From an uncultured Planctomycetaceae bacterium (GTDB lineage: Bacteria; Planctomycetota; Phycisphaerae; SM23-33), in NCBI GenBank assembly GCA_964472875.1, contig CAYYMD010000008.1:2414-66413 (forward strand): a stretch of DNA of 64,000 bases, given 5' to 3'. Numbering within the stretch: position 1 is the stretch's first letter; every line of letters starts with the position of its first letter. Both the position numbers and the translations under genes were made by a program. The notes under the pieces were generated by a model that saw only the letters and a list, made by a program, of their open reading frames with translations, did not search any database and was not told the origin of the DNA. Positions 28,536-57,492 of the stretch are shown here, piece by piece.

Positions 28536-28543
<8 letters not shown>

Positions 28544-39975: not shown

Positions 39976-41076
39976 TCAGATGAACTTTTTCTTTTTCGGC
40001 AGTTTCCCTTTTACGTAGTTCAGGTGGTCCACCACGTTGTCCCACAGGGGGTTGTTTTTTTCCGGTTCCGGTTCGCTGGTGGCCGGTATCATTTCCAGGA
40101 GCTTCTCGAAAGCGGTGTGGGCATCTTCCCACTGTTCGTTCTGCTCGAGCACATAGGCCTTGTGGTACTGGTTAATTACACGGTTTATCAGCTCCGTTTC
40201 GGCCTTGGCGTAAATCCGTTCATCCGCTATTCGCTCGAAATCCGACCGGTTGGTGTAGGCCAGGTAAAGTTTGAAATACTTCACCGACCGATAAAGATTG
40301 CCTGGCTCCTGTTCTATGTTACGGTCTTCGTAGAGCATTCTGGCTTTATTGACTGCCCGCTCGGCTTTTACAGGGTTGCGGTGCTTGTTGGGGATGGGTT
40401 CCCGCAGGATGCTGCGTATTTTATTATCATCGAGTGCGGGCGGCGCCTTTGTTTGAACGGCCGATCCGCCTCGAAGGCGTGACAGAAGGGCGATGACGAA
40501 TATTATCACCCCCATGTAAACGCCGAAAATTATCAGATAGCGTTTGAGTTTCTTCTTTTTCTCCGCCTTCTGTTGCTTTTCCTCTTCGGTCAGCATTTCC
40601 GGCGATTCTTCCTGCTCGTCCTGCTCGGCGGGCTCGGGCGCGGATTTTCTCGGCGGCGGTTTGGGTTTTTCTTCCTCGGGCAGCTCCTGTTGCTCTTGCT
40701 CTTTTTCCTCCGGTGGGGGGGCATGTTCGGCGAGATAGTCGGCTACCGCCTGCTCGACATCGTCGCCGGCGGCTACGAACAATATCTTCGTTTCGCTGCC
40801 GATTTCAAAGACGTCGCCGGTTTCAAGCAGAATTCTCTTTTTGGGCTTTTTGTATTTTTTGCCGTTTATCCTGGTACCGTACGAAGAGAGATTGCGGACG
40901 GACCAACCGTCGGCGGTCAGTTCGAACTGCACCTGTTCTCTGGAGGCGTGCTGTTCATCCAATGTAATATCCGCCTGCGGCGACCTTCCCGCCATAGCGG
41001 AATTGCCGTCAATATCCACTCGGCGGTCTTTCTGCGGGCCTGACATGAAAACCAGTGTCGGAGCGGTCTGAGACAT
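39976..41076 (-). CDS. FHA-domain protein with acidic/Lys-rich linker, single TM helix and a periplasmic TPR-like domain (first gene of the Tad locus as drawn)
   Basis: N-terminal FHA RSPQADITLDEQHASREQVQFELTADGWSVRNLSSYGTRINGKKY...GDVFEIG. The TM helix is LIIFGVYMGVIIFVIALL. The C-terminal helical repeats show YFKLYLAY-type spacing. Confidence 0.6.
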   Translation of the reverse strand: MSQTAPTLVFMSGPQKDRRVDIDGNSAMAGRSPQADITLDEQHASREQVQFELTADGWSVRNLSSYGTRINGKKYKKPKKRILLETGDVFEIGSETKILFVAAGDDVEQAVADYLAEHAPPPEEKEQEQQELPEEEKPKPPPRKSAPEPAEQDEQEESPEMLTEEEKQQKAEKKKKLKRYLIIFGVYMGVIIFVIALLSRLRGGSAVQTKAPPALDDNKIRSILREPIPNKHRNPVKAERAVNKARMLYEDRNIEQEPGNLYRSVKYFKLYLAYTNRSDFERIADERIYAKAETELINRVINQYHKAYVLEQNEQWEDAHTAFEKLLEMIPATSEPEPEKNNPLWDNVVDHLNYVKGKLPKKKKFI

Positions 41077-42050
41077 CAGAACATACCTCCACGAATCATC
41101 CTGATAATCGCCGGGGCGAACACCGCCAGCACGACGCTCATGAGAATCAGCAGGGACGGTATGAGAATCCTGACCGATGCGACGGCGGCAGCATTTTCGG
41201 CCCGGACGCTGCGCCTCAGCCGCAGGAGGTTCGCCTCGGAATGCAGAACGTCGTGCAGCGGCGTGCCGAGTTCTTCGGCCTGGATTACGCTGGCCACGAT
41301 GCTCCGCAGCAGTTCGAGGGGGATTCTGTCGGAGAGGTTTCTAAGCGCCTTGCGTCGGGTGGAGCCCAGTTCTATTTCGGCGATGACGCTTCTTAACTCC
41401 ACGTTCAGAGGGTCGGTTGTGTCGTCTCTTACCACCGACTTGACCGCCTCGGTAAAGGTGGCCCCGGCAGCCATGGCCATTGCTATTAAATCGAGCGTAT
41501 ATGGCAGGCGCTTGGATATTTCGCTGACCCGTTTGGAGGCGGTGTCATGGAGTTTGTACAGCCGCACGAAGATGCCCCCGGCCAGGCCGACCGCTATCAC
41601 AAGAATACTGAACTGGCCGAATGAAAACAGGTAGAGCAGTTCGAGCACTATTCCCATCACAAGACCCGTCAGAACTGACACGGCCAGGTATTCTTCGGCG
41701 GTGTAGTAGTTGGGGCTGCCGGCGGCCGTCAGCCGTTGCCGCAGCCACTGCTTGGCCCGCGGCAAAGCGAGGCGGTGGCTTATCGCCAGCAGCAGCCACA
41801 TTATCGGCTGGAGAACCGGCTGTTCGAAAACGGTCCTGCGGTCGGTGTGTCCGGTGGCAAGGGCCGCCTCCCGCTGTGCAGAGACCTGGATTTTACTTTG
41901 CTGTGCGAAAACGCCGAGTATCAGTGTGGCCACCGCGGCGAACAAGCAGACCGAAATAACCAAGTCCCAGATCATGCTTCCGGGCCCGTAAGTAACCGCC
42001 GGTATCAGGATGTCCGCAAAAATTGTCATATCAGATGTCAACCGCAACAA
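41076..42050 (-). CDS. tadC: Tad/Flp pilus assembly inner-membrane protein TadC (GspF-like domain)
   Basis: T2SS-F-like domain with 3 to 4 TM helices, adjacent to tadB. Confidence 0.7.
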   Translation of the reverse strand: MLRLTSDMTIFADILIPAVTYGPGSMIWDLVISVCLFAAVATLILGVFAQQSKIQVSAQREAALATGHTDRRTVFEQPVLQPIMWLLLAISHRLALPRAKQWLRQRLTAAGSPNYYTAEEYLAVSVLTGLVMGIVLELLYLFSFGQFSILVIAVGLAGGIFVRLYKLHDTASKRVSEISKRLPYTLDLIAMAMAAGATFTEAVKSVVRDDTTDPLNVELRSVIAEIELGSTRRKALRNLSDRIPLELLRSIVASVIQAEELGTPLHDVLHSEANLLRLRRSVRAENAAAVASVRILIPSLLILMSVVLAVFAPAIIRMIRGGMF

Positions 42051-42909
42051 TTTTCTTTATCCACAAAAATCCAAGCACGTTCAGCACTATGATAAGCAGC
42101 AGGATAAGCTTTCCGATACTGTCGACGAACAGCATTCTCACATCTTCGGGCGCGACCATAAGGTACAGGATGGTCAGCACCACCGCCGGCATCGCACCCA
42201 GCCAGCGGGCCGTGGCCCGGCCCTGCGCGGTGAGCGTCTGTACGCGGCTTTCGAGGCGCTGTATCTCCCTGACGCTGTCGGCAATCCGGTCGAGAGTATT
42301 ACCCAGGTTGCCGCCTCTTTGGCGGTGCGTCTGAAGCGCCGAAAACAGCAGCCGGAAATTCCCCGACCCTATACGCTCGGCGGCGTTATCCATCGCCTCA
42401 TCCAGCGACATGCCAAATTCGTATTCCCGCAGCAGGTGGGCGAATTCCTGCCTAAGCGGCCTGGGACCGTCGCGGGCGAGCAGCTCCATCGCCTGCACAA
42501 GATTCAGCCCCGCACGCACGCCCGAGGCGAGGGTCTGCACGCCGCTTACAAGTTGCTCATCGAGCTGATTCAGACGCTTGCGCTGAAGGTAACGAAGCAC
42601 CACCCGAGGAAGCATAATTCCCGCAACGGCGCCCAGAATCCCGCCGATTATCGAACCGGCGATGATGTAGCCCAGCAGAGTCAGCAGTACGAATACCACC
42701 GCAGTGAGTATGGTGACCGTTCGGGGGCTTATGTTAAGCAGCAGCCCGGCACGGAGGACGCGGTAATATCTTTCCTCCCTCCGGTGAACCAACCCCATTA
42801 GCGGTGGCCCGCCGAGGTAAATAGCCGCGGCGGTGGCGATGAACACCACGGCCGAACTTACGGCCGTGGACACGCCAAAAGCCATCATCTGTCCTTCGGC
42901 CCAGGCCAT
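42031..42909 (-). CDS. tadB: Tad/Flp pilus assembly inner-membrane protein TadB (GspF-like domain)
   Basis: GspF-like domain; paired with tadC immediately downstream of the CpaF ATPase. Confidence 0.7.
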   Translation of the reverse strand: MAWAEGQMMAFGVSTAVSSAVVFIATAAAIYLGGPPLMGLVHRREERYYRVLRAGLLLNISPRTVTILTAVVFVLLTLLGYIIAGSIIGGILGAVAGIMLPRVVLRYLQRKRLNQLDEQLVSGVQTLASGVRAGLNLVQAMELLARDGPRPLRQEFAHLLREYEFGMSLDEAMDNAAERIGSGNFRLLFSALQTHRQRGGNLGNTLDRIADSVREIQRLESRVQTLTAQGRATARWLGAMPAVVLTILYLMVAPEDVRMLFVDSIGKLILLLIIVLNVLGFLWIKKIVAVDI

Positions 42910-44789
42910 CAGGTGAACGCTCCTACTTCAAGAAATCCATCTTCTATCAGTGCTTCGGCGAAACGCGGTATATAGCCGGTGTGTCGCAGGCGGGCCTGGG
43001 ATGGGGCCTGTCCTTTAGGTGTGCGGAGGACGTAAATATCTTCGGTTATTATCTGCGAGGTTTCCGGGTCCATGGTTAGTATCTCGGAGATGTGTGTTAT
43101 TCGGCGGCGGCCGTCCGGCATGCGGGCTATTTGCGCAATAATATCCAGCGCCGCCACCACCTGTTCGCGTATGGCTCTCACGGGCATTTCCACGGCCATC
43201 AGTACCATCGTTTCCAGACGCATCAGCATGTCTTCGGGATTGTTGGCGTGAATGGTGGTCAGCGAGCCGTCGTGACCCGTATTCATGGCCTGGAGCATGT
43301 CCAGGGCCTCGGGCCCGCGGCACTCGCCCACGATGAGCCGGTCCGGGCGCATCCGCAGGGCGTTGCGGACGAGGTCGCGGATGGTGTACTGGCCCTTGCC
43401 TTCGATGTTGGCCGGGCGCGTCTCCAGCGACACCAGGTGGTCCTGGGGAAGTTGCAGCTCCGCCGAGTCTTCTATGGTTACAATGCGTTCCTCGGACGGG
43501 ATGAAGTGGCTCAGCACGTTCAGCGTGGTGGTCTTTCCGCTGCCGGTCCCGCCGGAGATTATGATATTTTTGCGGCCGAGCACGCACGCGCGAAGAAAAT
43601 TGGCCGTTGCCTCTGTGAGCGTTTCTCTTTCAATCAGGTCATCAATGGTGAACGGTATCTGGGCGAATTTACGTATGGTAAGCGTCGGCCCCGAAAGTGA
43701 CAGCGGATTAATAACGGCGTTGACGCGCGAGCCGTCGGGCAGGCGCGCATCCACCAGCGGCTGGGAGCGGTCCACCCTCCTGCCCACCGGAGTGATGATT
43801 CGCTCTATGATGCTCTGGACGATTTCATCGGAAAAGAAGCTCCGCCCGGTGTTCTGGACCATGCCGTCTTTTTCGATATAAATCTTGTCCTTGCCGATGA
43901 CCATAATTTCATTGACGTTCGGCATCTCCAGGAGGTCCTGAAGAGGCCCGTAGCCGAGAACAACATCCTCAATTTCCTTGGAGAGCATTCGGCGGACGAT
44001 GTATTCACGCAGTTCGGGCGTGGCTTGCTTGGAAATGCGCTTAATCTGTTCGTCCCAGCCGGACTCGACCATGGAGATGTCTTCCTTGACACTGTGCGGC
44101 GCCAGTTGCAGCGGGAACCGCCCGAGCACGTCGCCCACCATGCGGGAGATTGCTTCTTCGTGCTTGCTCTGGAGCGTGTCGGTTTCGTCGAAGCCGTAAC
44201 TGTACATCAGTTTCCCGGTCGCCCTGCGGGATATCTCGGTAACCACGCTGCGCCACAGGAACTCGCGCATGAGGTGTTCGGCCATGTCCTGGTCGACCTT
44301 GTCATAGTGGGAGTCAATTATGCTCGACAGGTTGCGCTTGATGAGGGCTACGTGTTTTTTGTCCTCGGCCGAGGCCAGGTGAGAAGCCACCCGCAGGTTC
44401 AGCTGCTCCAGAAGCTCGGCATGCATCTGCTGTTCGAGGTCGACGATTTTTTTCCGCGGCGAGACGTCCCGTTTGCCGGCGGCGACGCGCTTGGCCGTGG
44501 GCGCCATCATGTACAGACTGTATTCGCCTATGCGTATTTCGTCGCCGTAGCCGATTTTGCGGCGTTGCCTAGGGCCCACCGGCTTGTTCGTCACAATCGT
44601 GTCATTCAGGCCGAGCGACTCGATGTAAAAACTGCCGCCGTCCCAGAATATGCGGGCGTGTTTCCTGGACACGAAGGGGCTTTTGAGCACGACGTTGTTG
44701 GCGTCGTCCCTTCCTATGGATATATTTTCCCGGTCGACCTGGGTGACCTTGCGCTGGTCTGTGTATTGATTGTAAATCCAGATTTCCAC
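42909..44789 (-). CDS. cpaF: CpaF/TadA-family secretion ATPase fused to an N-terminal FHA domain
   Basis: FHA domain: ISIGRDDANNVVLKSPFVSRKHARIFWDGGSFYIESLGLNDTIVTNK...GDEIRIG. ATPase core: Walker A IISGGTGSGKTT, IVTIEDSAELQL, Walker B LIVGECRG, His box. Confidence 0.9.
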   Translation of the reverse strand: MEIWIYNQYTDQRKVTQVDRENISIGRDDANNVVLKSPFVSRKHARIFWDGGSFYIESLGLNDTIVTNKPVGPRQRRKIGYGDEIRIGEYSLYMMAPTAKRVAAGKRDVSPRKKIVDLEQQMHAELLEQLNLRVASHLASAEDKKHVALIKRNLSSIIDSHYDKVDQDMAEHLMREFLWRSVVTEISRRATGKLMYSYGFDETDTLQSKHEEAISRMVGDVLGRFPLQLAPHSVKEDISMVESGWDEQIKRISKQATPELREYIVRRMLSKEIEDVVLGYGPLQDLLEMPNVNEIMVIGKDKIYIEKDGMVQNTGRSFFSDEIVQSIIERIITPVGRRVDRSQPLVDARLPDGSRVNAVINPLSLSGPTLTIRKFAQIPFTIDDLIERETLTEATANFLRACVLGRKNIIISGGTGSGKTTTLNVLSHFIPSEERIVTIEDSAELQLPQDHLVSLETRPANIEGKGQYTIRDLVRNALRMRPDRLIVGECRGPEALDMLQAMNTGHDGSLTTIHANNPEDMLMRLETMVLMAVEMPVRAIREQVVAALDIIAQIARMPDGRRRITHISEILTMDPETSQIITEDIYVLRTPKGQAPSQARLRHTGYIPRFAEALIEDGFLEVGAFT

Positions 44790-44810: not shown

Positions 44811-45617
44811 TTATCTCCGGAAGCCGCCGCCACCTGTGGACGCCCGCTCGGTCAGTGGCTCCAGCGTCGGATTTATTCTGGGCTTGGACAGCGAGGATTC
44901 CTTGGAACTGTTGACGTAAATCCAGGCAGCGCCTTTTTTGTGACTCAGGACGTTTTCCAGTTTCTTCGCCAGTTCGGGGTCCATCTGAAGCGTTATCGAT
45001 TTATACGTCCGGGGAACTTTAACGCCGGATCTTGTGCCCCTGGGCTGGTATTCCTCCCGCGGGTACTGGCCGCCTATCGCCAGAACAGGCACGTTCTCTA
45101 TAACCCGGCAGGTGGTATATGTATCGCCCACGGGAAGAACCGCCAGCACATCGACCCTGTCGCCCCAGCTAAGTACGGTGCCCGGGGCCTTGTCCGGGTC
45201 GACTTCTATGGTGACGGCCGACATGTTCTTGGGAATGTTATAACTGGGCCGGTCTTCTCCGCCGCCGGTGACGTGTCCCCACAAAACATATTGTCCCTTG
45301 TTCACGTTCCTTGTGAGTCTCTCGCCGTCGAGGAAGGACTTTTTCGTCGAGGGGACAGGATTCGGCAGCACGTCGTACACATCCTCCGGCACGGTTACGG
45401 TGCGGATGTCTTCTTCGGCTTCGATTTCGTGGCCGAGGGTTAGATACTTGTTATACTTGAGAAGTTTTACGGTTTCGCCCCTTGCGGCGCTGCGGACGTG
45501 TGCGACGTGCACATTGTAGATTATCACCACAATCACCGCCAGCACCAAGGCGGTTATCAACAGTCCCTTGTTCTTTATTCCAGGTTTGCCTTCGCCGTTG
45601 TCATTATCCTGGGCCAT
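44811..45617 (-). CDS. cpaB: Flp pilus assembly protein CpaB/RcpC (SAF domain)
   Basis: N-terminal TM anchor followed by SAF/CpaB-like beta-rich domains. Confidence 0.7.
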   Translation of the reverse strand: MAQDNDNGEGKPGIKNKGLLITALVLAVIVVIIYNVHVAHVRSAARGETVKLLKYNKYLTLGHEIEAEEDIRTVTVPEDVYDVLPNPVPSTKKSFLDGERLTRNVNKGQYVLWGHVTGGGEDRPSYNIPKNMSAVTIEVDPDKAPGTVLSWGDRVDVLAVLPVGDTYTTCRVIENVPVLAIGGQYPREEYQPRGTRSGVKVPRTYKSITLQMDPELAKKLENVLSHKKGAAWIYVNSSKESSLSKPRINPTLEPLTERASTGGGGFRR

Positions 45618-45632: not shown

Positions 45633-46253
45633 TTATTCGGCGGGCCGTACCGCCATAAATTCTATACGTATTATTTTCTCAAGAGTCGGACAGTTTCGCA
45701 ACCGTAGTATCAGCAATACTGTCCCGCCGTCGTCGTTGCGGATAAAAATATCTTTATCCGGGGATGCTTTACGGTCGCCGGCAGGAGGTGAATAGAATCC
45801 CATATCCCGTGCGATTTGCCGGTAATGTTCGCGTGTAGAAGTTTTGCTTGCCGGGCAGAGATAGCTTGCATGCTGGTAAAGATGTCCTCCCACGATCCGG
45901 CTGAAGGCGGCCTGTTTGACAGCACGGAGGGGTGGCGGGATTTTGGCCGGGTCGCCTTCCATTTGTTTGAGATTATTTCGTGCAGCCGTTGCGGGGTTTT
46001 CGGCCGATTCGAGCAGACCCTCAATTGCCATTGACGAAGGCGTCTGCGAAGTACTATCGCCGCCAACTGCCCCCGTATCGCCGGGAACGGACGGCCGATT
46101 CGCATCGCCGCCGGCGGTGAAAAATATATATGCCTGCCAGGCGGCGAAAACCACGGCTACCAGCAGGCAGAAATACAATATCGACTTCCAGAATAATTTT
46201 CGCCTGGCCGATTTCTCCTGCTCGGCGCTTTCGGCGTAATTAGGTGCATTCAT
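45633..46253 (-). CDS. Hypothetical membrane-anchored protein of the Tad locus
   Basis: Single N-terminal TM (SILYFCLLVAVVFAAWQAYIFF); no recognisable motifs; conserved operon position. Confidence 0.4.
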   Translation of the reverse strand: MNAPNYAESAEQEKSARRKLFWKSILYFCLLVAVVFAAWQAYIFFTAGGDANRPSVPGDTGAVGGDSTSQTPSSMAIEGLLESAENPATAARNNLKQMEGDPAKIPPPLRAVKQAAFSRIVGGHLYQHASYLCPASKTSTREHYRQIARDMGFYSPPAGDRKASPDKDIFIRNDDGGTVLLILRLRNCPTLEKIIRIEFMAVRPAE

Positions 46254-46267: not shown

Positions 46268-46897
46268 CTACCAGTTGACAAGGTATAAATCGCGGAACGT
46301 TTTCCCCATATCGGTGCCGGGTTGAGAAACGTTGCTTAGGGTCTGATCAAGTTCCGAAAAGTAGACTTCGGAAAGTTCTTTCCAGCACCGGGCCTCGTTA
46401 CGGCGCCACTGTCTCCCGTCGCGGATGTGATAACTTTGCATCGGCCCGGTTATGAACTGACGCCAATAACTCTGTGGTGGGGGGAATTCCACCGTCAATT
46501 CCGTGCCATGGCCACGGGGGTATTTTTCGACAACAGTTTCGCGCACAAATTCTTCGGCGGGGCTGTAATCTTCGCCCGATTTGGCGGCCAGTGCGTGCAG
46601 TGTATCTTCGGGGCCGTCGCTGTTTCTTCGGTGGACTATTTCCCCGCCGCCGGAAAGGAACAAATCCTCCAGCCGAAGACCGGATGGCCATCCTCCCCCC
46701 TTGGCGCTCTTCCAGGCCGAGTATCTGCTGGCGATCTTCACCTGCTGTTTATTCCTGTTGGCCCAGCCGAAAAAGAAAATCAGACTGATTATCATCGCCA
46801 GAAACGGAATGCTGACCACCGTCTCGAAGATTGCGCTGCCGGACTGTTTATGCCGACGCCGGCGGTGCGGGAAAGTTGTTTTTATAAGTTTGTGCAT
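46268..46897 (-). CDS. TadE-like pseudopilin/assembly protein
   Basis: N-terminal TadE-like segment SGSAIFETVVSIPFLAMIISLIFFFGW. Confidence 0.6.
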   Translation of the reverse strand: MHKLIKTTFPHRRRRHKQSGSAIFETVVSIPFLAMIISLIFFFGWANRNKQQVKIASRYSAWKSAKGGGWPSGLRLEDLFLSGGGEIVHRRNSDGPEDTLHALAAKSGEDYSPAEEFVRETVVEKYPRGHGTELTVEFPPPQSYWRQFITGPMQSYHIRDGRQWRRNEARCWKELSEVYFSELDQTLSNVSQPGTDMGKTFRDLYLVNW

Positions 46898-46918: not shown

Positions 46919-48997
46919 TCAGTGCTTAATGTACATCTCGGCCATGTCCTCGTCCACGGCCATCATGTACTCATATACCTTTTGCAGTTCGTCGTAAGTC
47001 AACAGGTGGCCGACCGAATCTATCTCCGATGAGCCCTCGTCGAGCCGCCAGGCCCAGTCCCGCCACTTGCTAACGGGCATCAGAGCGGTTTGCCAGTCCT
47101 GTGTCCACAAATCGAAACTTGAATTATTGAACACCTTGGATTGCGATACCGCCACCATTTGTTCGGCAGGGTTGGGGTTTTGGAAACGGTTCGACCAGAC
47201 CGTGCTGACGTCCCCGGCTCCGCCGACGCCAAGGTAGGTAAAGTATTCCCTGCGGAAACCCTCGTCGGGGTCCGAGCGGTATTCAGGCGCCGGGCCAGGA
47301 TCGTAATCGCCTGTGGAGGTGTCCAGCAACATAGGCGCCGGCAGTTCCGCGTACTGGTCCCAGTTACACGGATTGTCTATTTCCACCTCCGCGCCTACGT
47401 CAATACCGCCGAATGTATACCACGCAACCACGTAGACATCCTGGAACAGCGGCTCGCCGGTCATAGGATCGACTTTTTCCTGAATGCCTATCCGGTGATC
47501 ATAGGTGGTCTGGTAGGTGTAACTGTCTTTCCAGACGTAATTAGATACCATCGGCACCGACCAGTTCTCCGGGTCGTTCCAGCCGGGAGTCCAGATTGAG
47601 ATGGGATACTTGCCGTTGGTGTAATATGTTCCGGGGCTGAGCCAGTTGGGTGAATTCTCCGGAACGGAAGACACTATCTCCACCAGATAAAACATGGTGC
47701 GGTCAACACTCACATCATTGCGCTGGGCCGTTTCTCGCGCGGTGGGGTAATCCGTTATCCATTGTGGGTAATGTATGGTCTGCCGTGTTCCTGAGTCAAA
47801 CATGTAGCCCAGTTTGATGTCGGCGATTTTGCGGATGTAATGATAAAAATAGGTATCGGGCAGTTTGCCGCGGTGGTGCCGGCCGTGATCATACGCCCAC
47901 CAGTTTATGCGATCCATCGCCCAGTGATAAGGACCTTCAGCGCCATACCCGATGTGTACACGGTTAGTTACATTTCTCCAGTGTCCCGGGCGTCCTCCGC
48001 TTCTCTGTTTGGCCGAGGCCCCGACGCGCCTGCCGCCCACGTTCACGCTACCGCTGCCGCCTCTGACAAGCGGACCGGGGGTGCCCGGCACCCATTCCCT
48101 TCCGATTACCTCGGTCCTGTACAGAGGGTATCGCCAGCGATACAGGCGGGCCCACGGGCCCAGGCGGTGAGGCCACTGGCCGTCGGGAATAGCCCCGCCA
48201 CGTCCGCCGGTGTATCTGAATGTCGCGCAGTTGCTGTAAACGTGTTCACGTCCCTGGAGCGTGGGCTGGTAATCGCGAAACTCGCCGCGTTTTGCCGGTG
48301 GCCGCGGCACAACGGGAATCAGAAAGGCCGTATCGGTCTCGTTGGCCTGTCCGAATTGAACGGCATCGGCCTGCGCCAGCATGCCCGCGGCCTCAATGGC
48401 GGACTGCGAAAAATTATCCAGTGTGGTTACCGCCTGCCAGAATTTGCCGTTAGGCGGCGCGCTGCCTCCGCCGCGGATTGCCCAGTGCGTGGTCTGGTCC
48501 ATCTCGAAGCCACCCTGGTTAAGTGCCTCGTTCATGGCCGAAAGAATCTCGCTCTGGTGAAGCATTCTTTGGCGGAGAGATTCGAGCCCTTCGGTGAGGT
48601 ATGTCTCCGGTGTGCCCCGCGACACCTGGTTGCTTAGGGCCTGTTCCCAGGCCTGCAACTCTTCTGCCGACATCTGGACCGAAAGCGGCAGTGCATCCAT
48701 AATCGGAACCATTGCCAGAATGCGCGAAGACGCCACGTTGTTCATGGCCACCAGGTTCAGCGTGCGGGCTATCCAGCCGCCGCCGCTCACGGCCGCGGCA
48801 TCGGCGGTGTTCTGGCATTCCAGGCGCCGGTTGGCCTGGACCCCCATGTTCAGGACGTAAAACACCACTCCCACCAACAGCGTCATGGCCAGCAGCAGCA
48901 CCACCAGTATCTGCCCGCCGGCTTTTCGGCCGGGATATGGACGCCGGGCCCGAATGGCTACTTTCTGTTTCGATGCGATTTTTTTACCGTTCTGCAT
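46919..48997 (-). CDS. tadG: TadG-like large pilus-assembly protein (Tad/TadE-G-like N-terminal domain)
   Basis: 692 aa. N-terminal TM plus GQILVVLLLAMTLLVGVVFYVLNMGVQANRRLECQNTADAAAVSGGGWIA matches the TadE/G-like N-terminal family, followed by a long extracytoplasmic region. Confidence 0.6.
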   Translation of the reverse strand: MQNGKKIASKQKVAIRARRPYPGRKAGGQILVVLLLAMTLLVGVVFYVLNMGVQANRRLECQNTADAAAVSGGGWIARTLNLVAMNNVASSRILAMVPIMDALPLSVQMSAEELQAWEQALSNQVSRGTPETYLTEGLESLRQRMLHQSEILSAMNEALNQGGFEMDQTTHWAIRGGGSAPPNGKFWQAVTTLDNFSQSAIEAAGMLAQADAVQFGQANETDTAFLIPVVPRPPAKRGEFRDYQPTLQGREHVYSNCATFRYTGGRGGAIPDGQWPHRLGPWARLYRWRYPLYRTEVIGREWVPGTPGPLVRGGSGSVNVGGRRVGASAKQRSGGRPGHWRNVTNRVHIGYGAEGPYHWAMDRINWWAYDHGRHHRGKLPDTYFYHYIRKIADIKLGYMFDSGTRQTIHYPQWITDYPTARETAQRNDVSVDRTMFYLVEIVSSVPENSPNWLSPGTYYTNGKYPISIWTPGWNDPENWSVPMVSNYVWKDSYTYQTTYDHRIGIQEKVDPMTGEPLFQDVYVVAWYTFGGIDVGAEVEIDNPCNWDQYAELPAPMLLDTSTGDYDPGPAPEYRSDPDEGFRREYFTYLGVGGAGDVSTVWSNRFQNPNPAEQMVAVSQSKVFNNSSFDLWTQDWQTALMPVSKWRDWAWRLDEGSSEIDSVGHLLTYDELQKVYEYMMAVDEDMAEMYIKH

Positions 48998-49037: not shown

Positions 49038-51764
49038 CTATTGCTCGAGTTGTTGCCGGGCCTGGGCTATGAGGGACTTCACCTCGTCGGTGTCTTTGTA
49101 TCTTTTGGCTATATTGAAATAGGCAATTGCGCCCTTGTAGTCATTGGCGTTCATTGCCTCACGACCTTTTTGGAGATTTTCCTCATAGTGGATTTCATCC
49201 GACAGCGCCTGAGTTTCTTTCGTATCGTTAATGTCCCGTGCCTGCTTGACGAGTTCCTTGGCATTAGCGAATTCGCGGTTTTCCAAAGCCGTCTTGGCCT
49301 GTGAGAGGTAGGATTTATACTTTCTCTCCCGCGTGGTTCTGGCCAGTTCAGCCGTGACCAGTTCTTTCTTGGAAGGGTCAATACTCCTGGCTTGTTCGAA
49401 TGCCGTGATGGCTTCTTTGTAATCGCCGTTGGCGCGGTGTTTTCTGCCTTCGTTAATTTTGATGCGGCTGCGACAGTCTTTTATTTTATCTTTGAGGGAA
49501 CTGTCGCTTTTGATTTTTGCGGCCTGCTGGTACAGTTCCAGGGCCTGTTCCCACTGTCCCTTGTTGTGGAGGCCGTCGGCCCGCCTGAGCAATCCCGCAA
49601 AGTCCTGTTCGCGGATTATCCTGTTGCGAAGCGATTTTGCCGCGGAGTTATCGGGATTATCGGCGAGTATTTTCTCCAGTTCCTTCAGCGCCTGGTCGTA
49701 TTTATTTTCGTCGTAGAGGCGCCGGGCACTGGTCAGCGACATTTCCGATTTGAGCCGGCTTATTTGATTCTCGAGTTCGGCTGACGGCTTGATATTGTTG
49801 GCCTTTTCCAGTGCTTCTATGCGGGCCGCCGTGTCGTTGTTCTGTTCGGCCTGGCGCGCCTCGGACATGGCGGCGGCGTAGCGGCTTTCCCTGTCCAGTT
49901 TTTCAATTTTTTCTTCTACAGTCTTCTGCAATTGGTTCCGCCGGGTAGCGGATAATTCCCGCGCAGTTTCGCTCTCGAGCATGGCCAGGGCGTCCTGGTA
50001 GGCAGTCCTCGCGGCAACGTAGTCGTCCTGGCCAAGCATTTCGTCGCCTTTGGAGACGTGCTCTTTAAACTGCTTTTCGAATTTCTTTTGTGTTGCCTCG
50101 GCCCTGAGTTGTCTCAGCCGCTGACGCTGCAGGGAAGTGAGCGTTAGGTTGGAGAGGTATTCGAGATTGTCTTCGGCCTCTGCGAAACGTTCCTCCTCGA
50201 GCGCGTTTTCAGCAGTTTGTATTTTGTCTTCGAAATCGCGGGTGTTCAGGCGATATTCCTCAAAGTCCCGGATTACGTTATCCATACGTGTGGTCCATTC
50301 CACGAACAGTTGGTTCTCGCTGCGCGCCTGAAGCTGCTGGATTCGTTCCGTGGCGTTGGATTCCTCCGCTGCCGCGGCGCTCCAGTTGCCGCGCAGTACG
50401 TTTATGTGTCCTCTGCACAGGTGAACCCATACGGATGCCTTGGCCGACTGGATGGTTCCTTTGAATCGCTGCTTTGTGGTCAGGTCCTGGAACCCGGCGA
50501 TGGCCTCGCGAAGTTTCTCGATGGCCTGATCCTTTTGGCCGATGTCGCGGGCCTCCAGGGCCTTTTCAAAATCGTCTTTGGCTTCCTCGAATGCCTGGGT
50601 GGCGGTTTTGCGCAGATTGGTCGCCTCCATGTGCTGTTTTACACCCCATGACACGCCGATGCCGATGATGCTTACTACAATAACGCCCAGCAATACGAGT
50701 TTTGTTCGCCTGGAGAGACCCTTGGAAGGAACGGGGGCGGTCGGCGGAGGGCCCTGCGGTTCTCGGGCTTCTTCGGCGGCTTCTTCGCCTTCACCACCGG
50801 CGGGTTGTTCGCCCGGCTGCTCCTGCGGCTGCATTTCTTCAGGAGGTCCGCCCACAGGCCCTGCCTGTGTCCCGCGGGCATGCCCCGAAAAGGCAGAGCG
50901 TATCGCCCTGCCCAGGATCTCCATATTTTCAAAACGCTGGTCGCGGTCCTTGGCCATCATTTTCGAGACGATGTCCGAAAGTGGCTTGGGCACCGAGGGA
51001 TTAATCTCGTGTGCTGGCGGGGCCTGGACTTTTTCGTTTCCGTGCCACTTCATCCAACGCAGGGCCTCGCTGTGGCGGTCACGCACAATATCCTGGAATA
51101 TTTCGTTGAACTTGTCCCTGCCTATGAGCATCTCGTAGGCGATAAAGCCCAGGGAATAAACATCCACCCGCTCGTCTATGTCCGTGCCGGCGAACAGTTC
51201 CGGGGCCATGTATTTGGTCGTGCCCAGCGGCAGAGACTCCTGGCCGGTTAATGTGGCGGCCACGCCGAAGTCGGTAATCTTCGCCCGCAGTCCCTCGCCG
51301 ACGATAATGTTGCCGGGTTTTATGTCGCGATGGATGATTCCCGCCGAGTGAACTGCGTTAAGCGCGGCGGCCAGTCGCCAGATTATCTGAAGCGTTGCCT
51401 TGGGGTCTACCGGCTGGCGGTTTTCCTCCAGAGACTGCTCCAGTGTGTGCCCTGCCACGAATTCCATAACAATAAACTGGCCTTGCTCGGTTTCCAGCAG
51501 TTCGTAGATATTGACAATGCCCGGCTGCTCCGGCGCAAGTTTGGCGAGGATTTGCGCCTCCTTGCGGAATCGCTTGAGCGATTCCTCGTCGGCGGCCAGT
51601 TGCATAGGCACCTGTTTGATGGCGACATTCCTGTCGAGCGTCGGGTCGTAACACTTATAGACGACGGCCTGTCCGCCGATTCCGAGCCGCTTGCGAACTT
51701 CGTATTTGCCGATTTTCGTGCCGGTCGGCATTCCCGGACCTTGTTGCGAGTTATTCTCAGGCAT
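49038..51764 (-). CDS. Hanks-type Ser/Thr protein kinase, single-pass, with a large periplasmic TPR-repeat domain
   Basis: Kinase subdomains LGIGGQAVVYKCYD, VAIKQV, HRDIKPGNIIV, DFGVA and TTKYMAPE. A Pro/Glu-rich linker and the TM helix LVLLGVIVVSIIGIGVSWGV precede a C-terminal region of about 550 aa of TPR-like repeats (AIAYFNIAKRYKDT etc.). Confidence 0.9.
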   Translation of the reverse strand: MPENNSQQGPGMPTGTKIGKYEVRKRLGIGGQAVVYKCYDPTLDRNVAIKQVPMQLAADEESLKRFRKEAQILAKLAPEQPGIVNIYELLETEQGQFIVMEFVAGHTLEQSLEENRQPVDPKATLQIIWRLAAALNAVHSAGIIHRDIKPGNIIVGEGLRAKITDFGVAATLTGQESLPLGTTKYMAPELFAGTDIDERVDVYSLGFIAYEMLIGRDKFNEIFQDIVRDRHSEALRWMKWHGNEKVQAPPAHEINPSVPKPLSDIVSKMMAKDRDQRFENMEILGRAIRSAFSGHARGTQAGPVGGPPEEMQPQEQPGEQPAGGEGEEAAEEAREPQGPPPTAPVPSKGLSRRTKLVLLGVIVVSIIGIGVSWGVKQHMEATNLRKTATQAFEEAKDDFEKALEARDIGQKDQAIEKLREAIAGFQDLTTKQRFKGTIQSAKASVWVHLCRGHINVLRGNWSAAAAEESNATERIQQLQARSENQLFVEWTTRMDNVIRDFEEYRLNTRDFEDKIQTAENALEEERFAEAEDNLEYLSNLTLTSLQRQRLRQLRAEATQKKFEKQFKEHVSKGDEMLGQDDYVAARTAYQDALAMLESETARELSATRRNQLQKTVEEKIEKLDRESRYAAAMSEARQAEQNNDTAARIEALEKANNIKPSAELENQISRLKSEMSLTSARRLYDENKYDQALKELEKILADNPDNSAAKSLRNRIIREQDFAGLLRRADGLHNKGQWEQALELYQQAAKIKSDSSLKDKIKDCRSRIKINEGRKHRANGDYKEAITAFEQARSIDPSKKELVTAELARTTRERKYKSYLSQAKTALENREFANAKELVKQARDINDTKETQALSDEIHYEENLQKGREAMNANDYKGAIAYFNIAKRYKDTDEVKSLIAQARQQLEQ

Positions 51765-51795: not shown

Positions 51796-52686
51796 TCATT
51801 CGTCCCACGTCTCGACGTCGACATAATCCTGCGGTCCTTCGTTCGGCATGCGGCAGTGTGCGACTATGTCAATACCATAATCGCCGGCGCCGAAGTCCAG
51901 TTGCTTTCCGCCGCTTAAGACCGCAAAAACCCGGTCGGCATACGGCACCGATAAATACAGCGTATGTCTGACGGTTACTTTAAGGTCCTCATCCTTGGCG
52001 TATTTGTTGCCGCCACCGGCGGGCGGGGCCAGTGTAACGTCCGTATACTGGCGGGCGTAGTAAAGTTTTTTGCCCAGGTAATCCCTGGCCCACTTGGGCG
52101 TTGTTTTATTATAACGGCTGAACAGCTGCTGCAGCCCTTGCTGAAGTACGGCCGAATCTCCATCCGGCAATTCTTCGCTGGATGATGACACAGGCAACAC
52201 TGCCCATACGGCCGCATCCTCTATCATCCGCATCTTGGGCGATGCGTCGCCGGGGTACACTTCGTTGGGCGGCTCTTGGGGGAAGATATTCATCGGCACC
52301 GCCACGACCGCGCTGCGCGCTCCGCAGTAAGCCGCATAATGAACGGACATGTTTCCTGTCATCAGAAACATGCACTGGGTCATTATCATAACCAGCATAA
52401 GAGCAAACGGCAGCACCAGTGCGAATTCAAGTATCGCAACACCGCTTTGCGGGGATGGCCTTCGCCGGCGCCGTCCGGCCATCCACATCACACCGCACAG
52501 TCCAACCAGGGCCACGGCGCAAAACAGCATTACAACCCCGGCCAGTATGGAAATCCTGCTGAACAGTGCACGTCGTATCCACGGCGTTTTCGCGGCGGCA
52601 AATACGGCGGCCGCGCCGGCCGAAAGCAGCAGCACCGCAACGGCTGCGATAAACGCAACACGTCCTGTTCGCCATTTGCCGTTCAT
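51796..52686 (-). CDS. TadE-like protein with extra N-terminal TM segment
   Basis: SGVAILEFALVLPFALMLVMIMTQ matches the TadE N-terminal motif, preceded by an additional hydrophobic segment. Confidence 0.55.
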   Translation of the reverse strand: MNGKWRTGRVAFIAAVAVLLLSAGAAAVFAAAKTPWIRRALFSRISILAGVVMLFCAVALVGLCGVMWMAGRRRRRPSPQSGVAILEFALVLPFALMLVMIMTQCMFLMTGNMSVHYAAYCGARSAVVAVPMNIFPQEPPNEVYPGDASPKMRMIEDAAVWAVLPVSSSSEELPDGDSAVLQQGLQQLFSRYNKTTPKWARDYLGKKLYYARQYTDVTLAPPAGGGNKYAKDEDLKVTVRHTLYLSVPYADRVFAVLSGGKQLDFGAGDYGIDIVAHCRMPNEGPQDYVDVETWDE

Positions 52687-52689: not shown

Positions 52690-53277
52690 TTAAAATCCAA
52701 GAATACCCCTGGCCGCCGGACCACCGAGCAGAACATCGACCAGTGCCCCGGCAGCGCCGATACAAAGCGCCAGGCCGAAAGGTATTTTAGGGCTCTCCGG
52801 CGAAGAGGGGCCCGCCGGTTTGCCCCGCGCAAACAAAAGGTAAAGGAATCGCAGTATCCGGCCCAGTGTGCGTTTTGTTATTTTCTTTTTCAACATTACC
52901 GCCAGGGCCATCACAGCGGCGACCGCAAAACCGTAAAAAAGAGTCGCCAGCGCCACTCCCGTGCCGCCGAGAGCGCCGACAGCGGCCATAAGTTTCACAT
53001 CGCCGCCGCCTATGCCTCCGGCCAGCCACGCCAGAAGTAGTGGCCCTGCGCCTACCAATACGCCCAGGGCCGCGCCGGCCAAACCTATGGACGCTGCCGA
53101 CTGTTTGCCGCTTATCCCGCCCAGGAATGTATGGCCGACGAGTCCGACGATTAAAGCCGGATATGTTATCACATTGTATATTTTGCCGCTGCGAACGTCG
53201 ACAATTGCGGATAACAACACCACTACGCCAAGAATCACAAGCGGCCAGTATTTGGCGAAATCAAACCACACACGCAA
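52690..53277 (-). CDS. tadV: Prepilin peptidase of the A24 family (CpaA/TadV type)
   Basis: 195 aa polytopic membrane protein. The conserved Asp context SAIVDVRSGKIYN and second Asp region resemble CpaA. Confidence 0.75.
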   Translation of the reverse strand: MRVWFDFAKYWPLVILGVVVLLSAIVDVRSGKIYNVITYPALIVGLVGHTFLGGISGKQSAASIGLAGAALGVLVGAGPLLLAWLAGGIGGGDVKLMAAVGALGGTGVALATLFYGFAVAAVMALAVMLKKKITKRTLGRILRFLYLLFARGKPAGPSSPESPKIPFGLALCIGAAGALVDVLLGGPAARGILGF

Positions 53278-53324: not shown

Positions 53325-53537
53325 CTAATCGGGCATAGTTTCTTCGGCGGATCCTCTGATCCGGCTGAAAAGATCGAGCACCCATTGCTTGATATCGCCG
53401 CCGAACCACACTACCAGCCCAAGCAGAGGCAGGGCGATGGCGGCTATGACAAGGATATACTCAATCATGTCAGCGCCTTGTTGGTCCCGATTGAGTGTGC
53501 GGAGTTTATTCATCATGCGTTTTACATTTTTTTTCAT
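53325..53537 (-). CDS. flp: Flp/Fap pilin (Flp1)
   Basis: 70 aa. Leader MKKNVKRMMNKLRTLNRDQQG, then ADMIEYILVIAAIALPLLGLV matching the Flp G/XXXXEY processing motif. RBS GGAGAGG upstream of the ATG at 53537. Confidence 0.8.
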   Translation of the reverse strand: MKKNVKRMMNKLRTLNRDQQGADMIEYILVIAAIALPLLGLVVWFGGDIKQWVLDLFSRIRGSAEETMPD

Positions 53538-53590: not shown

Positions 53591-53776
53591 TTACGGGAAG
53601 GGAAGGGTATGCAGAAATACCACCATACCGTAATGCACTGCCAGTAAATCCAGCAGCATTCTTATAACGTAAGCCATCGGCAACACGAAGGCCGCCAGTA
53701 GAAGCGCCCATTCTATGGTCGTCTGCCCCGCCTGGTTGGTTGCCGAAAGCGAGAAAAATTTTGCTATTGCCGTCAC
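53591..53776 (-). CDS. flp: Flp-like pilin variant (Flp2) with E-W in place of E-Y
   Basis: 61 aa. Leader ...ATNQAG then QTTIEWALLLAAFVLP. Start overlaps the upstream ATPase stop by 4 nt. Confidence 0.65.
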   Translation of the reverse strand: MTAIAKFFSLSATNQAGQTTIEWALLLAAFVLPMAYVIRMLLDLLAVHYGMVVFLHTLPFP

Positions 53777-54921
53777 TTCGCCACCGTTTCTTTATCGGCA
53801 TCCGCCGATGCCGCATCGAAAATTTCTTTCGTCAAATTCATCGAATTCCGAAGCATCCTGATTTTCGGCTCCCTGGAGAACGTGGATTGTTCTCCGGTCC
53901 ACCGCAGTTTTCCGGTTTCGTCCTTGGCCCTGGTGTCGTCGCCAAGACGATAGGAGAAGATATCCTTTACCTGGTACCTGCCCTCGGTGTCCAGCGGCAG
54001 GACCTCCGCCAGTTGTGTTATCTTCCTGCTTCCGTCGGAAAAACGCGTGGTCAGGGCTATAACATCAATGGCCGAGGCAATTTGTGCCCGCAGGGCATAA
54101 AGTGGCAACTCGACCTTTGACATCATCGCCAGCGTCTCCAGGCGGTTCAGCGCGTCCATGGCCACGTTTGCGTGCAGCGTGGACATGCTTCCGGCATGGC
54201 CGGAGGTCATCGCCTGTATCATGTCCAAGGCTTCGCCGCCGCGGACCTCGCCGATTACCACGCGGTCCGGCCTTAGCCGCAGAGACGAGCGGAACAGGTC
54301 GCGGATGGTTACTTCGCCGCGGCCCCAGCGGTCAGGCGGGCGCGACTCAAGCGATATCACGTGCTCCTGCTGCATCTGCAACTCGGCCGAGTCCTCTATC
54401 ACAACTATACGCTGGTGGTGGGGGATGAAACTGCTCAGGACGTTCAGCAGGCACGTCTTGCCGCTGGAGGTGCCGCCGGCAACGAGTATGTTCTTCTCGC
54501 CCAGCACGCATATCTTCAGATATTCCTCTGCCTGTTCGGTCCACGTTCCAAGCTCCACCAGGTGGTCGGCGTCGAAGGCGGTGCGGGCGAACTTTCTTAT
54601 GGTCATGCACGTGCCGTGGCGGGAAAGCGGTGCCATGATTATGTGCACCCTGCTGCCGTCCGGAAGGCGGGAGTCCATCAGCGGAAGTTCCGGGTTCATG
54701 CGCTTTCCGGTGTATTGGAGCACGTTGTTGACGGCCACCATCAGCGCGTCGGCGTCTTCGAATTTCGCATCGGTTTTTGTAATTTTGCCGGACCGCTCTA
54801 TGTAAATCTCATTCGGATTGTTTATCATGATTTCCGAAACTTCCGGATCCCGGACATACTCTATAACCGGCTCAAGAAAGTGCTCTATGGTACTTTCGTA
54901 AATGTTCGTATTTGCCGACAT
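53773..54921 (-). CDS. cpaF: Second CpaF/TadA-family ATPase (minimal, 382 aa, no FHA domain)
   Basis: Walker A LVAGGTSSGKTCLLN, VVIEDSAELQM, Walker B VVIGEVRGGEA. First gene of the minus-strand Tad operon. Confidence 0.9.
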   Translation of the reverse strand: MSANTNIYESTIEHFLEPVIEYVRDPEVSEIMINNPNEIYIERSGKITKTDAKFEDADALMVAVNNVLQYTGKRMNPELPLMDSRLPDGSRVHIIMAPLSRHGTCMTIRKFARTAFDADHLVELGTWTEQAEEYLKICVLGEKNILVAGGTSSGKTCLLNVLSSFIPHHQRIVVIEDSAELQMQQEHVISLESRPPDRWGRGEVTIRDLFRSSLRLRPDRVVIGEVRGGEALDMIQAMTSGHAGSMSTLHANVAMDALNRLETLAMMSKVELPLYALRAQIASAIDVIALTTRFSDGSRKITQLAEVLPLDTEGRYQVKDIFSYRLGDDTRAKDETGKLRWTGEQSTFSREPKIRMLRNSMNLTKEIFDAASADADKETVAK

Positions 54922-55219
54922 AATTCACTCTGCAGGCCGCTACCTGTTTTCAACCGCGGCCGCTTTACGTAACATATGCGAGATAACACATATAACTTTC
55001 ACTACTATAGTTTACAAGGATTTTACCCTTATAACAAGTTAAACAATTTTGTCTGCGGCAAAGTGTCGAATGATTTTCAAAATTCCCTTAATAGGATGGA
55101 TTGCCACGAATTGCGGCGAAGTTGTATAATTCATGAGGTTGATTCGTGTCATCAGTAACTCAAAATAACGAAGCCATCAATTGCATCGCGTTCTGTAACA
55201 TAATGCGGAGGCGACGGGC

Positions 55220-56494: not shown

Positions 56495-57492
56495 TAGCCG
56501 CGGCATGGATAACCTGGGCGCTGCTGTGGCTGGGATTGCTGGCGGGCCTGTTGTTCTCCGCGCTTTACAGCGGGATGGAGACGGGAGTGTACGTGCTGAA
56601 CAAGATTCGCCTGGACCTGCTGGCTGAATCGGGGCGAAAGTCCGCAGGCGTGCTGCGCAGGATACTGGCCGCCCCGACCAATCTTCTGGCCGTGCTGCTG
56701 GTGGGTAACAACCTGGCCAATTACGCTACCACGTTCGTGGTCAGCACCATGTTCGTGCTGACAGGGCGCGAACGTTTCGCAGAGCTGTATACCCTGGCAG
56801 TGGCCACGCCGCTTTTGTTCGTATTAGGAGAATCGGTTCCCAAAAACATATTCCAAACGCGCCATTTGGGCAGCGAGACACTCACATTGCGGCTGACGTG
56901 GCTGCTGAAGATTTCCAGTTGGATTTACAACGCCACCGGAATGGCGCCGCTTGTGCGGGGGTTCTCGGCCGTGCTACTGCGGCTGCTGCGCGCCGATACC
57001 GGCGGCAGGAGTCCGCTGGCGCACAAGGGTGTCTCGGCCGCTGTGGCCGAGGGCGCCGCCAGCGGCGTGCTGACGCAGTTCCAGTCGCTGATGGCCGACC
57101 GCGTCATTAACATAAGGCAGATAAGTTTGTGGGATGCGATGAAGCCCATGAGCGAGGTCGTTACTATCTCTCATGACTCCGGCCGCGAAAGCATCCTGGA
57201 GACCGTTACGAATCATAATTTCACGAGATTTCCGCTGGTCGGCTCCGACGGCAACATCACCGGCATAATTGACATATACGACGTTCTCACGGCCGATGAA
57301 AACGGCTCATCCGCCACTGCGGCCGCCAGGCCGCTGATACTGCGCGCCTCGATGACCATCTCTGACGCGCTCTACCGCATGCAGCGAGAACACACTGCAA
57401 TGGCCGTAGTCGCACAGGGACAAAAGCATGTCGGTATCGTCACCATAAAAGACCTCGTGGAGGAAATTGTCGGTGAACTTGAAGCGTGGTGA
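56491..57492 (+). CDS. CNNM-type DUF21 + CBS-pair protein (paralog lacking the CorC_HlyC C-terminal domain)
   Basis: FSALYSGMETGVYVLNKIRL (DUF21) and a CBS pair. The ATG overlaps the upstream stop (ATGA), so the two are translationally coupled tandem paralogs. Confidence 0.7.
   Translation: MIAAAWITWALLWLGLLAGLLFSALYSGMETGVYVLNKIRLDLLAESGRKSAGVLRRILAAPTNLLAVLLVGNNLANYATTFVVSTMFVLTGRERFAELYTLAVATPLLFVLGESVPKNIFQTRHLGSETLTLRLTWLLKISSWIYNATGMAPLVRGFSAVLLRLLRADTGGRSPLAHKGVSAAVAEGAASGVLTQFQSLMADRVINIRQISLWDAMKPMSEVVTISHDSGRESILETVTNHNFTRFPLVGSDGNITGIIDIYDVLTADENGSSATAAARPLILRASMTISDALYRMQREHTAMAVVAQGQKHVGIVTIKDLVEEIVGELEAW

Follow-up and report, generated by a model that had tools for sequence, protein, structure and literature searches.

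How is the motor of a Tad (type IVc/Flp) pilus brought to its platform, and how is its direction controlled? In the current view a Tad pilus has one motor, a single bifunctional CpaF that is positioned by the ParA-like TadZ. The question is raised anew by a 64,000-nucleotide stretch of contig CAYYMD010000008.1, from an uncultured Planctomycetaceae bacterium (the whole stretch is called the window here). One gene cluster of this window encodes two CpaF-type ATPases, only one of them fused to an FHA domain, together with a Hanks-type Ser/Thr kinase and a second FHA protein. The cluster is probably a Planctomycetota-type Tad pilus operon with a built-in threonine-phosphorylation arm. The most likely reading of its sequence, and one on the better side of even, is that the main motor is recruited in a phosphorylation-dependent manner that replaces TadZ, and that the second motor is specialised.

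The two ATPases, FHA-CpaF (626 residues) and CpaF2 (382 residues), are encoded by open reading frames (ORFs) with exactly the limits given in the original prediction, a note made from the sequence alone, and their translations fit its description. FHA-CpaF starts at a GTG codon, yielding the N-terminus VEIWIYNQ. This start is correct, because the N-terminus aligns with those of about 120 orthologues of 621-627 residues, which begin MEIWVYNQY. The FHA domain that had been proposed at the N-terminus is real. The PF00498 hidden Markov model matches residues 23-88 (E 7.5e-17, 62 bits against a gathering cutoff of 20.7), and AlphaFold2 folds residues 1-95 into the eleven-stranded beta-sandwich of FHA domains with a predicted local distance difference test score (pLDDT) of 86-93. 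The model was recomputed for residues 1-285 with 16 orthologues (mean pLDDT 80.8); an earlier full-length model from a shallow alignment had a pLDDT below 50 over the ATPase core and was used for the N-terminus only. When the predicted domain was compared with the PDB using Foldseek, the top matches were all FHA domains, namely GarA, OdhI, Rv0020c/FhaA, EmbR and Bdellovibrio DgcB (E down to 5e-8, probability 1.00, template modelling score TM(target) up to 0.85, root-mean-square deviation 2.2 Å). These are domains that bind phosphothreonine (pThr), and they include GarA in complex with PknB. G26, R27, S41 and R42 do not vary among 60 orthologues, and the conservation of H44 and N62 is 90% or more. 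At these Gly-Arg, Ser-x-x-His and Asn positions the pThr is presumably held, as in Rad53 FHA1 and GarA. Judging by sequence and model, the FHA domain looks competent to bind pThr.

Three FHA-CpaFs of one subclade, from the set of loci compared below (numbered with the prefix L), lack the pocket Arg, having IGK or IGS in place of GR (L045:2548-4227, L051:9377-11110 and L060:9503-11161). Two of the three also lack the pocket Ser. The contigs are labelled Gammaproteobacteria, Chromatiales and Streptomycetaceae, and the FHA domains of these proteins may be phosphorylation-independent.

The C-terminal part of FHA-CpaF matches PF00437 (T2SSE) over residues 281-556 with an E of 2.8e-60 and has the full set of Walker A, Asp box, Walker B, His box and Arg fingers. 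The closest solved relative is Caulobacter CpaF (8rkd/8rjf/9e24; E ~1e-102, 346 bits, residues 269-591). Next for both ATPases of the window come archaeal GspE2/FlaI with 123-163 bits, while PilT scores about 43 bits against FHA-CpaF and is not among the matches reported for CpaF2. Residues D340 and E463, the equivalents of Caulobacter D208 and E331, are conserved. The ATPase adjoining the TadB and TadC genes is thus an orthodox CpaF.

The approximately 180 residues between the FHA domain and the ATPase core had been described as a linker. This region is not a spacer. It is predicted to be structured and helical, with helices at residues 111-134, 142-164, 167-191, 208-222, 231-255 and 258-277 (pLDDT 82-93 for the block), and the confidence is low only in the short loops 101-107, 134-142 and 196-204. 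An extra unit of three long helices (residues 111-191, pLDDT 82-90), which carries invariant residues, comes first, and three more helices (residues 208-277) occupy the position of the CpaF NTD1/three-helix bundle. A search with HMMER using residues 105-268 against 1.84 billion cluster representatives returned 12 proteins, all from the same family. The helical module is therefore lineage-specific. Many of its residues are invariant, including those of a loop that joins the two helical units (R188-RATGKLMYSYG-F200, window 44190-44228). Most positions of this R-R-A-T-G-K-L-M-Y-S-Y-G-F loop are invariant or at least 90% conserved in the 60 orthologues, a few being less so, and its pLDDT is low in both models. 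Residue S/T203 of the CpaF loop was considered as an intramolecular ligand of the FHA domain and rejected, because Ser predominates there and FHA domains require pThr.

The fusion of FHA to CpaF is itself already known, having been published as class III CpaF and as KilF. Class III CpaF has the architecture FHA-IDR-3HB-NTD-CAD, as in Achromobacter xylosoxidans E3HIW0 (Yen et al. 2025, PMC12019362). Like the window protein, it has an N-terminal FHA domain fused to a CpaF/TadA motor with a core homologous to Caulobacter CpaF. As described, it is mostly betaproteobacterial and its FHA domain is followed by a disordered region (PMC12019362), whereas the 170 intervening residues of FHA-CpaF are conserved and predicted to be helical. 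The window protein also differs in its planctomycete host and in the kinase and second ATPase that accompany it.

The kinase consists of a kinase domain with intact VAIK, HRD and DFG motifs, one transmembrane segment (residues 352-370, by hydropathy) and an extracytoplasmic region of about 530 residues with TPR repeats. Its position in the cluster is kept in L001 and L003-L006. An alignment of five orthologues revealed a short conserved motif within an otherwise unalignable, Pro/Glu-rich juxtamembrane linker. The pattern T-x-x-[LIV]-P occurs 12-19 residues ahead of the transmembrane segment in 120 of 120 orthologues, which are 36-55% (mostly 37-44%) identical. In the subset with the strict pattern (n=110), position +1 is Ala in 102 sequences, and all 110 have Leu, Ile or Val at +3 and Pro at +4. 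By comparison, the most frequent residue at each of the positions -4 to -1 accounts for only 35-59%. Many FHA domains favour pThr with an aliphatic residue at +3. The threonine of this T-A-x-[LIV]-P motif is a candidate FHA docking site. A precedent, as cited in PMC12077195, is PknB of Mycobacterium tuberculosis, a receptor kinase whose phosphorylated juxtamembrane segment docks the FHA protein FhaA/Rv0020c. The FHA domain of Rv0020c is also among the best structural matches to the N-terminus of FHA-CpaF. However, the mycobacterial pair controls the cell wall and division, not a pilus, and the site in the window is a predicted one.

The second FHA protein of the cluster (FHA-TM, 366 residues) has an FHA domain, an acidic linker, a transmembrane segment (residues 177-195) and a TPR-like extracytoplasmic domain. 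Among orthologues its pocket keeps the GR and SR residues but is variable at the His and Asn positions. The orthologues in L001 and L006 retain the canonical pocket residues. The original prediction mentioned neither the kinase nor FHA-TM, and it also overlooked that TadZ is absent and that the FHA-CpaF fusion had been published.

CpaF2 had been called a bare ATPase. It does contain a T2SSE core alone (residues 17-292, E 1.6e-57), and its best match in the PDB is CpaF (E 7e-79, 269 bits), but it is barer than was supposed, as even the NTD1 three-helix bundle is lacking. In the CpaF2 family the median number of residues preceding NTD2 is 16, showing that these proteins have no NTD1. They are smaller than the "minimum" class I CpaF architecture. 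The score of CpaF2 against the PilT/PilU model TIGR01420 is 54.9 bits, with a cutoff of 319.1, and both the PDB search and the tree place it in the CpaF/TadA lineage, not with PilT.

The two ATPases are 48% identical over 309 residues and are therefore not near-identical recent duplicates. A neighbour-joining tree was calculated from 104 core sequences (353 columns, 100 bootstraps) and rooted with archaeal GspE2 and FlaI from the PDB alignments. All short second ATPases fall into one clade with a bootstrap value of 95/100, made up of CpaF2 of the window, those of L001, L006, L008, L012, L026, L013, L028 and L075, and four database orthologues. Its sister group comprises all other bacterial CpaFs (65/100), and the planctomycete FHA-CpaFs form a clade of their own (91/100) within the main CpaF radiation. 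The paralogy assumed in the original prediction is thus divergent and ancient. The branching inside the two clades is broadly congruent, which suggests long co-inheritance.

The residues that handle the nucleotide were defined in the Caulobacter structures (PMC11300603). All nine of them, the Walker A K/T, E312, E357, R359, H382, R217, R223 and R347 (Caulobacter numbering), are kept in both ATPases of the window and are conserved in 54 FHA-CpaFs, 43 CpaF2s and 64 other CpaFs. Residues D208 of loop 8 and E331 of the central loop lie at the CpaG/CpaH interface modelled with AlphaFold, and mutants at this interface lost function (PMC11300603). Outside the CpaF2 clade D208 is invariant (118/118) and E331 nearly so (117/118). 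In CpaF2 of the window they are replaced by N and W. Across the clade the first position is T, D, S or N; the second is never Glu, being W in 35 of 43 proteins and otherwise M, R, Y, D or S. With catalytic residues intact and platform-surface residues altered, both motors look active but should engage the platform differently. Thus CpaF2 looks catalytically competent, and it may do a different, phosphorylation-independent job at the same machine.

Both genes belong to a run of 14 co-directional genes on the minus strand, from position 54921 down to 39976, with intergenic gaps of at most 47 nucleotides. The order is CpaF2, two Flp prepilins, prepilin peptidase, TadE-like protein, kinase, TadG-like protein, proteins of 209 and 206 residues, CpaB, FHA-CpaF, TadB, TadC and FHA-TM. 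The genes for CpaF2 and the first Flp, FHA-CpaF and TadB, and TadC and FHA-TM overlap by 1-4 nucleotides. Both CpaF genes thus stand together with tadB/tadC, cpaB and the genes for Flp pilins and a prepilin peptidase, as expected of a Tad system. A gene of 58-61 codons occupies the position of the first Flp-type prepilin in L001 and L004, orthologues of the second are 63-73 residues long, and those of the 209-residue protein have weak or faint TadE matches. The only intergenic terminator-like site on the minus strand, at 39959-39941, lies just 3' of the last gene; within the Tad cluster the promoter and terminator scan was uninformative. The proposal that both CpaFs share one operon is plausible for all 14 genes, although it is not proven. 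An Rfam scan of the window gave zero matches, and hence no riboswitch precedes the operon. Domains of secretin, TadZ/CpaE and PP2C were not detected anywhere in the 64 kb (ORFs of at least 90 codons were scanned for PP2C), although the Tad cluster is complete in other respects. If the system has an outer-membrane conduit and a phosphatase, their genes must lie elsewhere.

The same order of 14 genes recurs, with unrelated flanks, in contigs with 72-74% identical orthologues (one from Planctomycetaceae, one from Phycisphaerae and one JGI metagenome contig without assignment), showing that the cluster is a self-contained module. Across close relatives the ATPases are 70-75% identical, as against 37-44% for the kinase. 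In more distant Planctomycetota, namely Pirellulaceae (L008, L012) and Phycisphaerales (L010, L026), the same parts occur in a rearranged order. A Myxococcota metagenome-assembled genome (MAG; L013), a "Deltaproteobacteria" MAG (L028) and an uncultured bacterium (L075) have FHA-CpaF, TadB, TadC and one or more FHA/TPR proteins followed by a short second ATPase. In L013 a protein with two FHA domains and TPR repeats (L013:14569-16737) stands directly after TadC, and the CpaF2-clade ATPase is next, at about 16770-17882.

The associations of FHA-CpaF were counted in a sample that combined the best 80 tblastn matches, from many phyla, with the window and loci collected earlier; the best full-length match among the 80 is 54% identical. 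After duplicates had been collapsed, 84 non-redundant CpaF loci remained, of which 22 have FHA-CpaF and 62 do not. A gene for a Hanks kinase is present within 10 kb in 11/22 of the former and in 1/62 of the latter (p 4e-7). An additional FHA protein is found in 12/22 against 1/62 (p 6e-8), and a second CpaF-like ATPase in 10/22 against 1/62 (p 2e-6). The relation to TadZ is the reverse: a ParA/MinD-type TadZ is encoded upstream of CpaF, or fused to it, in 0/20 FHA-CpaF loci and in 48/57 others (p 7e-12). A profile of TadZ, built from the TadZ-CpaF fusions of Bdellovibrionales, Omnitrophota and other loci, detected none anywhere in the FHA-CpaF loci or in the window.

Proteins of about 700-725 residues in which Pfam recognises a ParA/MinD (TadZ-like) domain fused to CpaF were seen at L040:845-2995, L061:8918-11089, L041:2368-4545 and L014:4068-6176 and also in L073. 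Their hosts are Bdellovibrionales, a Deltaproteobacteria MAG, Omnitrophota and an uncultured bacterium. The TadZ-CpaF fusion is thus more widespread than Bdellovibrio, where TadZA was recently described.

A sequence of events can be proposed for the operon. An extracytoplasmic cue would be sensed by the TPR region of the kinase, which would become active and phosphorylate a membrane partner or, most plausibly, its own juxtamembrane Thr in T-A-x-[LIV]-P. The FHA domain of CpaF would dock on the resulting pThr, perhaps with FHA-TM as a scaffold, so that the motor would be brought to the platform, or licensed there, only while the kinase is active. FHA docking would in this way stand in for TadZ, the ParA-like motor positioner of classical Tad systems. 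CpaF2 would act at the same machine free of phospho-control, in retraction, priming or the assembly of an alternative pilin.

Several observations weigh against this proposal. The case for the pThr docking motif is made by conservation, and the motif was looked for in the kinases of more distant FHA-CpaF loci and is absent, making it clade-specific. Half of the FHA-CpaF loci have no kinase within 10 kb, though some of the contigs are short. No PP2C phosphatase domain is encoded in the window, although one could be encoded elsewhere in the genome. The pocket of FHA-TM is partly degenerate here, with Gln for His and Tyr for Asn (ASREQ...SSYGT), and its affinity for pThr may be weakened. The full-length AlphaFold2 model is unreliable in the ATPase core. 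The tree is a neighbour-joining tree of 353 columns, and the deep position of CpaF2 could be an artifact of long-branch attraction. Finally, the locus sample is a set of best matches and not a random one; the contrasts are nevertheless large.

A division of labour between the motors, as the original prediction had suggested, is favoured, as CpaF2 keeps the residues of catalysis and loses NTD1 and two platform-surface residues. Neither motor, however, can be assigned extension rather than retraction, or regulated rather than constitutive assembly, the two examples that the prediction had given. It is conceivable, though doubtful, that CpaF2 is a dedicated PilT-like retraction motor and FHA-CpaF a kinase-gated extension motor. 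The type IVa pili also have two paralogous hexameric ATPases on one machine, PilB and PilT, and CpaF2 is minimal (NTD2 and the C-terminal domain) in the same way as PilT is relative to PilB. Its catalytic residues are intact, its central loop is changed and it has been co-inherited with FHA-CpaF across phyla. On the other hand, Caulobacter Tad CpaF is bifunctional (PMC11300603, PMC12019362), so that a separate retraction motor is not required. In contrast to PilT, CpaF2 is of the CpaF/TadA lineage, with CpaF as its best match and a score far below the TIGR01420 cutoff. No feature of its sequence signals direction, and an opposing function is only a proposal. It is less likely still that a full scheme holds in which some Tad pili are signal-gated, two-motor machines, with CpaF2 as a dedicated counter-motor having a rewired platform loop, FHA-CpaF docking on the kinase pThr instead of being positioned by TadZ, an extracytoplasmic cue triggering extension, and TadZ and FHA-CpaF excluding each other as a general rule. 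CpaF2 might instead be a redundant or alternative motor with no opposing function, forming mixed hexamers with FHA-CpaF or serving one Flp pilin only. The two flp genes directly downstream of cpaF2, the single TadB/TadC pair and the separate cpaF2-flp-peptidase sub-module on the other strand in L026 would agree with such a role. The clade-wide loss of modelled platform-surface residues that are otherwise invariant speaks against plain redundancy, and this reading is improbable.

The remaining alternatives concern the FHA domain and the machine as a whole. The FHA domain could be a phosphorylation-independent scaffold of the YscD/EscD type found in type III secretion systems, tethering the motor to FHA/TPR proteins. 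FHA-CpaF does match PF16697 (Yop-YscD_cpl), below the cutoff, three other FHA-CpaFs (L045, L051, L060) are without the pocket Arg and, in two cases, the pocket Ser, and a kinase is missing near half of the FHA-CpaF loci. However, the G-R, S-R-x-H and N pocket is invariant or almost so in the clade of the window protein, the conserved operon includes a Hanks kinase gene, and the nearest structural matches are genuine pThr binders, which leaves a pure scaffold rather unlikely. The least likely reading is that the cluster is an apparatus for contact-dependent killing, akin to Kil of Myxococcus xanthus, and not a pilus for adhesion or surface sensing. Kil is a Tad-like locus with an FHA-fused ATPase, KilF, and extra FHA proteins (Seef et al. 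2021, PMC8460266), and predation by Myxococcus depends on KilF. The window likewise has FHA-CpaF and one FHA-TM protein, and L013 and L028 carry the same set of FHA-CpaF, TadB, TadC, FHA/TPR proteins and CpaF2. Kil, however, was described from predatory deltaproteobacteria only, with a single ATPase, split clusters, the short secretin KilC and no kinase (PMC8460266). The window has one contiguous operon with an embedded kinase and two ATPases, and neither a secretin nor an effector was seen in it. The named closest homologues of FHA-CpaF are from Planctomycetota or Phycisphaerae, unlike the hosts of Kil, and the planctomycete FHA-CpaFs group with those of L013 and L028 with a bootstrap value of 15/100 only. 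The Myxococcota MAG L013 has a second ATPase, whereas the published Myxococcus Kil was described with one.

Phospho-dependent recruitment of the main motor, with a specialised second motor, remains the preferred reading. Related arrangements have been found in other machines. In the type VI secretion system of Pseudomonas aeruginosa, PpkA, Fha1 and PppA form a pathway in which the assembly of an envelope-spanning machine is gated by an FHA protein and a membrane-bound Hanks kinase that has an extracytoplasmic sensor domain. The window encodes the corresponding receptor Ser/Thr kinase (Pkinase domain, VAIK/HRD/DFG, one transmembrane segment, TPR) but no cognate PP2C; the machine is a different one, and FHA is fused straight to the motor ATPase. 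The analogy to threonine phosphorylation in type VI secretion was already drawn for Kil, for which a phospho-signalling cascade was proposed and neither the writer kinase nor the FHA ligand is known (PMC8460266). In Bdellovibrio there are several paralogues of TadA, and TadZ is found fused to TadA (bioRxiv 10.64898/2026.07.08.737194). There, as in TadZ/CpaE systems, the motor is linked to spatial or regulatory cues by an "address" module, which is N-terminal or adjacent to it; this module is, however, ParA/MinD-like and not FHA, and TadZ and FHA-CpaF are mutually exclusive in the sampled loci.

What is new here is the conserved package of a kinase, two FHA readers, an FHA-CpaF with a helical module and an NTD1-less CpaF2, with no TadZ. 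In full-text searches of an incomplete library, neither a planctomycete Tad-kinase-FHA module nor a second, conserved clade of CpaFs was found described, nor was the exclusion between TadZ and FHA. The operon unites a writer (the Hanks kinase), readers (two FHA domains) and a motor (FHA-CpaF) in one conserved unit, which makes the role of FHA on Tad and Kil motors directly testable. The TadZ exclusion, the CpaF2 clade and its platform-surface losses bear on how Tad motors are recruited and their direction controlled. Should all of the proposed steps fail, the locus would be an ordinary Tad operon of a planctomycete, well annotated and with a domain fusion that is already known.

Table 1. Features of the Tad cluster and of the nitrogen-assimilation block, in positions of the window.
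Feature	Position	Strand	Description	Basis
CpaF2	53773..54921	-	second ATPase, 382 residues	T2SSE only
Flp-type prepilin 1	53591..53776	-	61 residues, G/QTTIEW	ORF and motif
Flp-type prepilin 2	53325..53537	-	about 70 residues from MKKNVKR, G/ADMIEY	weak Pfam Flp_Fap/Flp1_like match
Prepilin peptidase	52690..53277	-	Peptidase_A24	Pfam, E 1.5e-13
TadE-like protein	51796..52686	-	296 residues	Pfam TadE, E 2e-6
Receptor-type Hanks Ser/Thr kinase	49038..51764	-	908 residues	Pkinase, E 3.7e-52, and TPR matches
Kinase juxtamembrane T342-A-P-V-P	50727..50741	-	candidate pThr docking site	conservation
TadG-like large pseudopilin	46919..48997	-	692 residues	Pfam Tad PF13400, E 1.3e-4; N-terminal transmembrane segment
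Minor-pilin-like protein	46268..46897	-	209 residues	N-terminal transmembrane segment; no Pfam match
Conserved protein without family match	45633..46253	-	206 residues	N-terminal transmembrane segment; position kept in L001, L003 and L004
CpaB/RcpC	44811..45617	-		Pfam RcpC, E 1.4e-13; TIGR03177, 82.8 bits against cutoff 71
FHA-CpaF	42909..44789	-	main platform-adjacent Tad motor ATPase, 626 residues	Pfam FHA and T2SSE
FHA domain of FHA-CpaF	44505..44789	-	residues 1-95	AlphaFold2 beta-sandwich, Foldseek
Helical module of FHA-CpaF	43959..44468	-	residues 108-277	AlphaFold2 model
CpaF NTD2 and C-terminal ATPase domain	42909..43958	-	residues 278-626	alignment to CpaF 9e24 residues 137-458
TadB	42031..42909	-	platform protein	T2SSF, E 1.7e-21
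TadC	41076..42050	-	platform protein	T2SSF, E 4e-18
FHA-TM	39976..41076	-	membrane-anchored FHA protein, 366 residues	FHA, E 2e-10; Yop-YscD_cpl, E 8e-9
GAF-sigma54 activator	17340-18929	-		
Ammonium transporter	19107-20540			
Glutamine synthetase	22334-23764			
Glutamate synthase, large subunit	23990-28543			
Glutamate synthase, small subunit	28536-29960			

Two tandem genes for CNNM/CBS (CorC-type) transporters (55220-57492) are divergent from the Tad operon. They are separated from it by an AT-rich intergenic region of about 300 nucleotides (54922-55219), which contains the best sigma-70-like match of the promoter scan, at 55101-55130 on the plus strand. Elsewhere in the window there are a nitrogen-assimilation block (17340-29960), five paralogues of GFO/IDH/MocA oxidoreductases (within 872-7431 and 58609-61144) and a gene for a 926-residue protein with HEAT repeats and a 3-keto-disaccharide hydrolase domain (7465-10245).

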